A stretch of 64,000 bases of DNA, from positions 37,634,001-37,698,000 of the forward strand of contig OZ024752.1 of the NCBI GenBank assembly GCA_964016885.1. The letters are read 5' to 3'. This document shows positions 47,833 through 48,426 of the stretch, one piece after another. Each line of letters begins with the position of its first letter. The stretch's first letter is position 1. The stretch is from Eledone cirrhosa. Taxonomy: Eukaryota. Made by a program: the position numbers and the translations under genes. The notes beneath the pieces were generated by a model. It saw nothing but the letters and a program-made list of their open reading frames with translations. It did not search any database and had not been told where the DNA came from.

Positions 47833-48426
47833 ATGGGGGAAAAATGTCCAGTAGAACCAGACTTATGTTCGCTCGAGGGTGTTAACCTTTCGCAGGATTC
47901 CGTCTGCACTCTGGAATCGGATCAAGGCAATAATTTAGGGTCGCAAGACAGCATTACTACAACTTCTACTGCTACGACTGTACTTCCGGAAGACGGTGTT
48001 AAAGTTAAGAAGAAGAAAAAAGATGGCAAAAAGGTTAAGAAGAAGAAAAGTTCGAAGAAATCGAAAGATGGAGAATCGAAAGACGGTGAAGTCAAAGAAC
48101 ACAAAACAAAAAAATCGTCGAGTAGTCGACGTCCGGAACCTGAGGGGGGAAATACTACCTCGAATGTCGCCATGGACGAATATGACAAGGTCATTTACAA
48201 TAATGACCCTCTGTTTTCCGACCTTGAGCTTTCCGACAAAGAAGGTGACTCCGAGTTACAGGTGCAATCGGGGACAAGACGCCAAACTCGTTTTATAGGT
48301 GGTAGTGGTGGCGGCACTGGAATAGTAATTCCCTGTACCCAGTTCGGCTTAAATTCAAACACCATGATCAAATTTGCAATCATAAGCACTGAACTGCAAA
48401 ATGTCCTTCAAGTGTCGCTGAAAAGG
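47833..48426 (+). CDS. Tpm: Alternative first coding exon of tropomyosin: 198-aa disordered, lysine-rich N-terminal extension
   Basis: ATG in good context (AAACAATGG) with an in-frame upstream stop at 47782. Complex non-repeat ORF MGEKCPVEPD...KVKKKKKDGKKVKKKKSSKKSK...TMIKFAIISTELQNVLQVSLKR ending at phase-0 donor AGG|GTATGG. Compatible with tropomyosin exon 3; lies in intron 2. Confidence 0.8.

Follow-up and report, generated by a model that had tools for sequence, protein, structure and literature searches.

The window analysed here, the whole 64,000-nucleotide stretch of Eledone cirrhosa DNA, carries the first exons of a tropomyosin gene on the forward (+) strand. The coding part of exon 1 (38566..38679, +) encodes residues 1-38, and exon 2 (39498..39623, +), which has a CAG acceptor and a GT donor, encodes residues 39-80. 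Intron 2 contains a 198-codon open reading frame (47833..48426, +), the coding part of what we call the head exon, which begins at an ATG in the context AACAATGG and ends in ...VSLKR. A GT donor in phase 0 (48427-48428) lies directly 3' of this ending, and the frame read past it meets a stop 7 codons on. Upstream, an in-frame TAA at 47782-47784 closes a 6-codon in-frame uORF that begins at 47764. This uORF (47764-47784) lies inside the likely 5' leader of the head exon (47290..47832, +), which is outlined by contigs of sequencing run X23. The intron that opens with the head-exon donor (48427..64000, +) extends beyond the window end.

The rest of the gene lies beyond the window end. A further first exon, the third, has 40 codons and is likely that of the short isoform; it is found at G000:C12:37701002-37701121 (67002-67121 in extended window numbering), and exon 3 (residues 81-125, beginning CESEIAGLNRRIQ...) provides the acceptor of the head exon from G000:C12:37714709 (extended 80709). 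Clusters of alternative tropomyosin exons follow at G000:C12:37719800-37737400 (extended 85820-103358), comprising four copies of exon 4, at least two of exon 5, three of exon 6, two of exon 8 and two last exons. The conserved half of the head is single-copy in the 3.0 Gb genome. Two more matches to PF00261 (model positions 187-241) lie on a different contig (G000:C3:245503680-245503838 and 245529369-245529533), and possibly represent a second tropomyosin-like locus or another coiled-coil gene.

Within tropomyosin intron 2, the stretch 47833-48426 serves as an alternative first exon, which is spliced to exon 3. Contigs from 4 of 24 sequencing runs were compared with positions 46900-48700: X23, from the same organism, and X5, X8 and X11, from related organisms. 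A 731-base contig of X23 matches 47759-48426 with zero differences, leaves the genome exactly at the donor, and continues with 29 letters, unique in 264 kb, that are identical to the start of exon 3, 32 kb downstream. A polypyrimidine tract and CAG stand directly before the joined base. The junction is seen in one contig, whose 29 letters on the exon-3 side fall just below the 31-letter bridging rule of the tool, and X23 itself is not recorded as RNA and could stem from the assembly's own study. Further X23 contigs cover 47290-47372, 47503-47646 and 47759 onward, repeats being skipped; such contigs cannot mark the true transcript start, and the 5'-most begins at 47290. Positions 47759-47814 are also matched in three related organisms. 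No junction was found in runs X5, X8 and X11, whose contigs read through the donor into the intron; those over 48427-48517 could stem from DNA, from unspliced RNA or from a head-only transcript.

The sole junction contig, with its short exon-3 side, and the entry of three other runs into the intron would suit a reading in which the frame is unused or is spliced to another gene. Against this stand the exact match to exon 3 at a canonical acceptor, the strong conservation of the motifs described below, and the same join in NCBI gene models of cephalopods, gastropods and bivalves (Octopus, Haliotis, Patella, Gigantopelta, Aplysia, Biomphalaria, Magallana, Ostrea and Mytilus), of a nemertean (Lineus), of annelids (Paralvinella and Dimorphilus) and of an insect (Danaus). 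We regard the reading as refuted for practical purposes. The preliminary description of this DNA had reported the 198-codon frame in intron 2 with its own ATG, upstream stop and phase-0 donor, all of which are confirmed. It had also proposed an internal first exon joined at residue 81 and called for junction reads from 48426 to exon 3; exon 3 starts exactly as it predicted, and the isoform is about 400 amino acids long (394-396 in O. bimaculoides models). Because the junction bypasses exons 1 and 2 as well as the short first exon, its claim that the normal N-terminal overlap region is lost holds as well.

Gene models of some relatives (P0040, P0042, P0147, P0157 and P0160) suggest a cassette exon that follows exon 2, and we considered and rejected this arrangement for the present genome. 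Three phase-0 AG sites lie in 47700-47833. Two of them have a pyrimidine tract, and a frame entered at either ends at the 47782 stop; the site that stays open (47790) lacks a tract. A first exon is therefore favoured here; this judgement concerns cassette use in this genome and not in the relatives. A candidate internal promoter (47232..47254, unstranded) was found by motif search and consists of two perfect elements, which we take to be a CRE (47232-47239) and a CArG box (47245-47254). The two lie 5 bases apart and about 40 bases upstream of the 5'-most contig (47290). With 3 CRE and 16 CArG motifs in 264 kb, the chance of such adjacency is about 0.007 by a rough, post hoc estimate. From the motifs and their position we infer that the pair may act as the internal promoter of the head exon. 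Outside the window, a further pair of CArG boxes (extended 66360 and 66553) stands upstream of the short first exon.

The head encoded by this exon has the following parts. Residues 1-55 (47833..47997, +) form an acidic, Ser/Thr-rich, disordered and weakly conserved N-part with 10 D/E against 1 K/R. A poly-Lys block (48001..48066, +) follows, in a basic region with 21 K/R in 44 residues. Residues 100-135 (48130..48237, +) carry the motif RPEPEG..(D)EYD.(I)IY..(E/D)PLFSD, hereafter RPEPEG..FSD, with a short predicted helix at 116-122. After a linker, residues 174-198 (48352..48426, +) form a helix of the type found in Drosophila aTm1 (Tm1-I/C), which, from the alignment and a complex model, is predicted to form a kinesin-1-binding segment with exon 3. 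The head has no Pfam family match, the RPEPEG..FSD motif included. AlphaFold2, run with a 91-row alignment, predicts no fold: pLDDT is below 70 for 158 of 198 residues, there is no helix or strand before residue 116, and the only helices are 116-122 and 175-195, the latter with a predicted pLDDT of 75-91. The prediction agrees with the disordered head that had been proposed, and the Lys block at 48001-48066, the DPLFSDLELSD patch, the Gly linker and the end helix are all present as the earlier reading had them.

These parts differ in conservation. Identity to O. bimaculoides is 36/55 in the acidic part, 38/44 in the basic region, 34/36 in the RPEPEG motif, 20/30 in the linker and 33/33 at the end; for Haliotis the respective values are 20/55, 25/44, 21/36, 5/30 and 29/33. 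Judged from such alignments, the conserved core of the head is the RPEPEG..FSD motif plus the last 25 residues, and not the poly-Lys block. The block is strongest in molluscs: all 10 named molluscs tabulated have 9-14 Lys per 22 residues, and it is weak in the named annelids and flatworms. At least 10 Lys in 22 residues are found in 30 of 87 heads of the RPEPEG type, in 0 of 35 of the insect type and in 0 of 13 others. By composition, then, the Lys block is the labile part of the head, and the weight that the first reading had placed on it was excessive. The octopus head, with its poly-Lys block and full RPEPEG..FSD motif, differs in this from insect-type heads, where the helix is preceded by an Arg-rich ..DYPG stretch. 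Of the 35 insect-type heads, 8 show an RP..EG-like remnant, placed 66-74 residues N-terminal to the helix.

A block this rich in K/R might target the protein to the nucleus or nucleolus, with the isoform working mainly in the nucleus, and tagged fly Tm1-I is indeed reported in nurse-cell nuclei as well (PMC5286366). We hold this to be very improbable: the block is not conserved outside molluscs, and nuclear targeting leaves the conserved helix unexplained.

The helix itself is homologous to the unique segment of Drosophila aTm1, which consists of 20 unique residues joined to residues 81 onward of classical Tm1, as the structure paper describes it (PMC8247599). When the head plus exon 3 was compared with the PDB, three Drosophila aTm1 fragments scored best (7BJS, 7BJG and 7BJN). 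Chain C of 7BJS shares 13 of 25 residues over the unique stretch, and 7BJS reaches 88.8 bits where the best classical tropomyosin reaches 54.1, part of this gap being owed to exon 3. The 198-residue head alone missed 7BJS in the PDB even at E<=10 and gave two chance matches only. The fly comparison covers aTm1 from residue ~252 onward, and over this range I184, L188 and L196 of the head correspond to fly I267, L271 and L279. At the same distance from the junction exon 2 has E/K/V and the short first exon D/K/R; unlike the head, these classical exons do not carry the set of hydrophobic residues at Khc-contact positions. Among 135 distinct helices, I267 is kept in 129, L271 in 118 and L279 in 99, with all three exact in 81, counts that are partly circular in that the anchoring pattern (matched by 207 of 212 proteins) required hydrophobic residues there. 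Leucine stands one place earlier than L279 in 16 of the 135, and L279 is absent in 20, Aplysia and Plakobranchus among them. We also observed that the spacing between N273 and L279 is reduced by one residue in 16 of the 135 helices, those of both named annelids included; in this stretch of the fly crystal T277 is looped out (PMC8247599).

A kinship of FAII..EL.N with insect Tm1 had been proposed in the preliminary description, and the 13 of 25 identities with Drosophila aTm1 bear it out. That description did not recognise the motif as the kinesin-1-binding helix of Tm1-I/C, nor the mechanism that goes with it. In the fly, aTm1 247-334 is reported to bind Khc 848-902 with a Kd of 141 nM, a single antiparallel helix lying on two chains of Khc (PMC8247599). 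The substitutions I267A/L271A/L279A abolish Khc binding and also disturb the homodimer, and I267A/L271A impairs oskar localisation (PMC8247599). According to the same source, the N-domain binds RNA, on which PMC8456996 gives further data, and residues 247-334 alone largely rescue oskar transport in the fly. The part conserved here therefore corresponds to the functional core. Tm1 is further described as inhibiting Khc via the Khc AMB region, for which the N-domain is needed (PMC10948360), and aTm1 as acting on basal RNAs in follicle cells (PMC9606379).

The present genome encodes the corresponding partner. The kinesin-1 heavy chain gene occupies G000:C1:312292200-312324100 in about 20 exons, and its cargo-binding exon matches chain A of 7BJS at E 4e-21, the binding site being almost the same as in the fly. 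The protein encoded by this exon is also 100% identical to that of two clam kinesins. A complex was modelled from stand-ins, namely O. bimaculoides residues 161-243 and two copies of Mercenaria Khc 847-920, the latter identical to this genome over the cargo-binding exon. The model scored 0.72 (median of three runs) against 0.02 for the best control, a mark reached by 51 of 78 solved complexes and by 2 of 108 mismatches in the calibration of the tool, although a like complex is already solved (7BJS), so that the pass may be memory, and the job is unlike the calibration. Agreement among the three runs covers at least 93% of contacts, and the partner pLDDT is at least 84. The modelled helix is antiparallel, and the equivalents of I267, L271 and L279 lie in its core among the lowest-error contacts. 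The head helix plus exon 3 is thus predicted to bind the kinesin-1 cargo-binding coil as an antiparallel 1:2 trimer.

Conservation of this helix face could also reflect self-association, as the same fly surface is reported to serve both the aTm1 homodimer and Khc, and the extension has been proposed to set the antiparallel topology (PMC8247599). The ancient job of the helix would then be an antiparallel self-dimer or the binding of another coiled-coil partner, with kinesin binding as a later insect use. It fits this reading that RPEPEG..FSD, which is not known to have a partner, is as conserved among spiralians as the helix. We consider it improbable. The fly homodimer is weak, with a Kd of 10 µM against the nanomolar value for Khc (PMC8247599), the kinesin site is conserved in this genome, and the complex model passes with the reservation given above.

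A pull-down with Aplysia KHC1 offers a lead in the same direction. Three of its 6 tropomyosin entries are given as 46.7-46.9 kDa with 22-27% coverage (PMC9829102), and the Aplysia head isoform P0041 has the same size, 46.8 kDa. The list holds more than 1000 proteins, actin included (PMC9829102), and the coverage may lie in the shared coil, so we do not take it as support for kinesin binding.

The head exon is widespread. At E<=1e-3, 48 proteins match the head, the best (1e-86, 76% identical) being from Octopus bimaculoides. Mollusc long isoforms annotated by NCBI (O. bimaculoides X9, X15, X17 and X27, Haliotis X10, Aplysia X10, and those of Mytilus and Magallana) share the same exon and the same junction, with 42-76% identity over the matched head part. 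They bear automatic isoform numbers, and the records examined give neither a function nor a link to aTm1. The supposition that the isoform is uncharacterised in cephalopods is thus right as to function and wrong as to existence, such isoforms being already in NCBI. A profile built from 33 head-only sequences had 166 matches at E<=0.001 among 1.84 billion representatives. Looking up 30 of the proteins gave seven with named organisms: the annelids Paralvinella and Dimorphilus, the nemertean Lineus, the flatworms Trichobilharzia and Rodentolepis, the butterfly Danaus among insects, and the nematode Soboliphyme, whose match is a candidate head of a tropomyosin gene. No deuterostome is among these seven, which set no outer limit to the range.

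An HMM of the last 28 residues, made from 33 RPEPEG-type heads, recovered 35 of 35 insect-type heads at 23.7-39.8 bits, against best decoys of 6.8 bits in 3500 shuffles, 1.9 in 159 tropomyosin windows and 8.8 in 174 kinesin-stalk windows; because a related profile had served to find the test set, the result speaks for consistency and is not independent proof. The ESM Atlas returned arthropod and mollusc tropomyosin clusters, to which we give little weight because the query held exon-3 residues. The Discussion of the structure paper states that aTm1 is 'present in Drosophilidae' (PMC8247599). In the openly searchable literature, with subscription papers and bioRxiv supplements outside its scope, we found no described head isoform outside flies and no described mollusc poly-Lys head. 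The present analysis adds evidence for the junction in a cephalopod, extends the range of the head to molluscs, annelids, a nemertean and flatworms, and identifies a second conserved motif. We think that a protostome-wide isoform of the aTm1 type probably exists and that it likely binds and restrains kinesin-1.

The isoform is related to aTm1 and distinct from it. Like the fly protein it has a long disordered head (by prediction), a unique helix of about 20 residues joined at residue 81, and no residues 1-80; I267, L271 and L279 are kept, as is the partner site on kinesin-1. The features of exon position, unique helix and predicted disorder are thus those of aTm1. In contrast to it, the coil is complete in the annotated octopus isoforms and the low-complexity, Asn/Ser-rich tail is absent; this tail is described for Sophophora only and as needed for the assembly of intermediate-filament-like polymers (PMC7519307). 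In 4 of 4 head isoforms of O. bimaculoides the last exon is one of the ordinary tropomyosin ones, and these can be located in the present genome. Because the short coil with Asn/Ser-rich tail that strictly marks Tm1-I/C is absent from the annotated isoforms, the protein is an aTm1-type variant with an orthologous head exon and not aTm1 itself. Classical long and short tropomyosins (PF00261) have exons 3 onward in common and several alternative internal and last exons; compared with them, the head replaces the N-terminal overlap region. The region of residues 1-80 is needed for the head-to-tail polymerisation of tropomyosin on actin. Its absence leads us to expect that this polymerisation would be lost or weak.

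A coil of about 200 residues, kept whole from residue 81 to the end, might still hold the isoform on actin, where the basic head would serve to bundle filaments or to connect them with microtubules or membranes, much as the preliminary description had it. The presence of the Lys block in every named mollusc tabulated is consistent with such a role, and fly Tm1-I is reported to bind microfilaments in vitro, a result that PMC5286366 credits to Kim 2011. In vivo, according to the same source, fly Tm1-I shows no accumulation on actin (PMC5286366). The overlap region is missing, none of 35 insect-type heads carries the block, the named annelids and flatworms have it in weak form, and the best-conserved part is the helix that binds kinesin in the fly. 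Retention on actin is therefore unlikely in our judgement.

We instead propose, by analogy with the fly, that the exon yields an isoform of about 400 residues with a helix like that of Tm1-I/C, which is likely to act as an RNA-cargo adaptor and brake of kinesin-1. Its place in the gene and its junction at residue 81 are those of the fly exon. The last 20 residues of the head would extend the exon-3 helix, and this is predicted to run antiparallel along the cargo-binding coil formed by two kinesin heavy chains. The disordered head would lie beside the kinesin tail and, if it behaves as in the fly, would help to hold RNA, perhaps through the Lys block. It may also stabilise the folded, inhibited motor until cargo is due to move, again as suggested by the fly protein.

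More tentatively, and with the balance of probability somewhat against it, the kinesin adaptor thought 'unique' to the fly may be an ancient protostome invention, in which one hidden tropomyosin exon has supplied an RNA-cargo adaptor and brake of kinesin-1 since the common ancestor of molluscs, worms and insects. To our knowledge, molluscs have no oskar. The mollusc isoform might serve general or neuronal mRNA transport, perhaps under a signal-responsive CRE/CArG promoter and with RPEPEG..FSD docking a further partner. If true, light-chain-independent regulation of kinesin-1 by a tropomyosin isoform would be a general invertebrate mechanism and not an oddity of the fly oocyte. Few adaptors between RNA and kinesin-1 are known, and the proposal is testable in the classic animals of axonal transport (squid and Aplysia) and in flatworms. 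'Tropomyosin' in mollusc kinesin pull-downs may be the head isoform and not carry-over with actin.

A further observation concerns the insect-type heads. Twenty-three of them (among P0166-P0224, e.g. P0172, P0175, P0189 and P0193) continue directly, without an intron, with V(D/E)GE..., which in 21 of those 23 leads into a diverged exon-3 helix; no other tropomyosin sequence follows, and P0175 has no PF00261 match. These 23 heads look like a stand-alone gene for a head plus kinesin-binding coil, or like a conserved read-through form.
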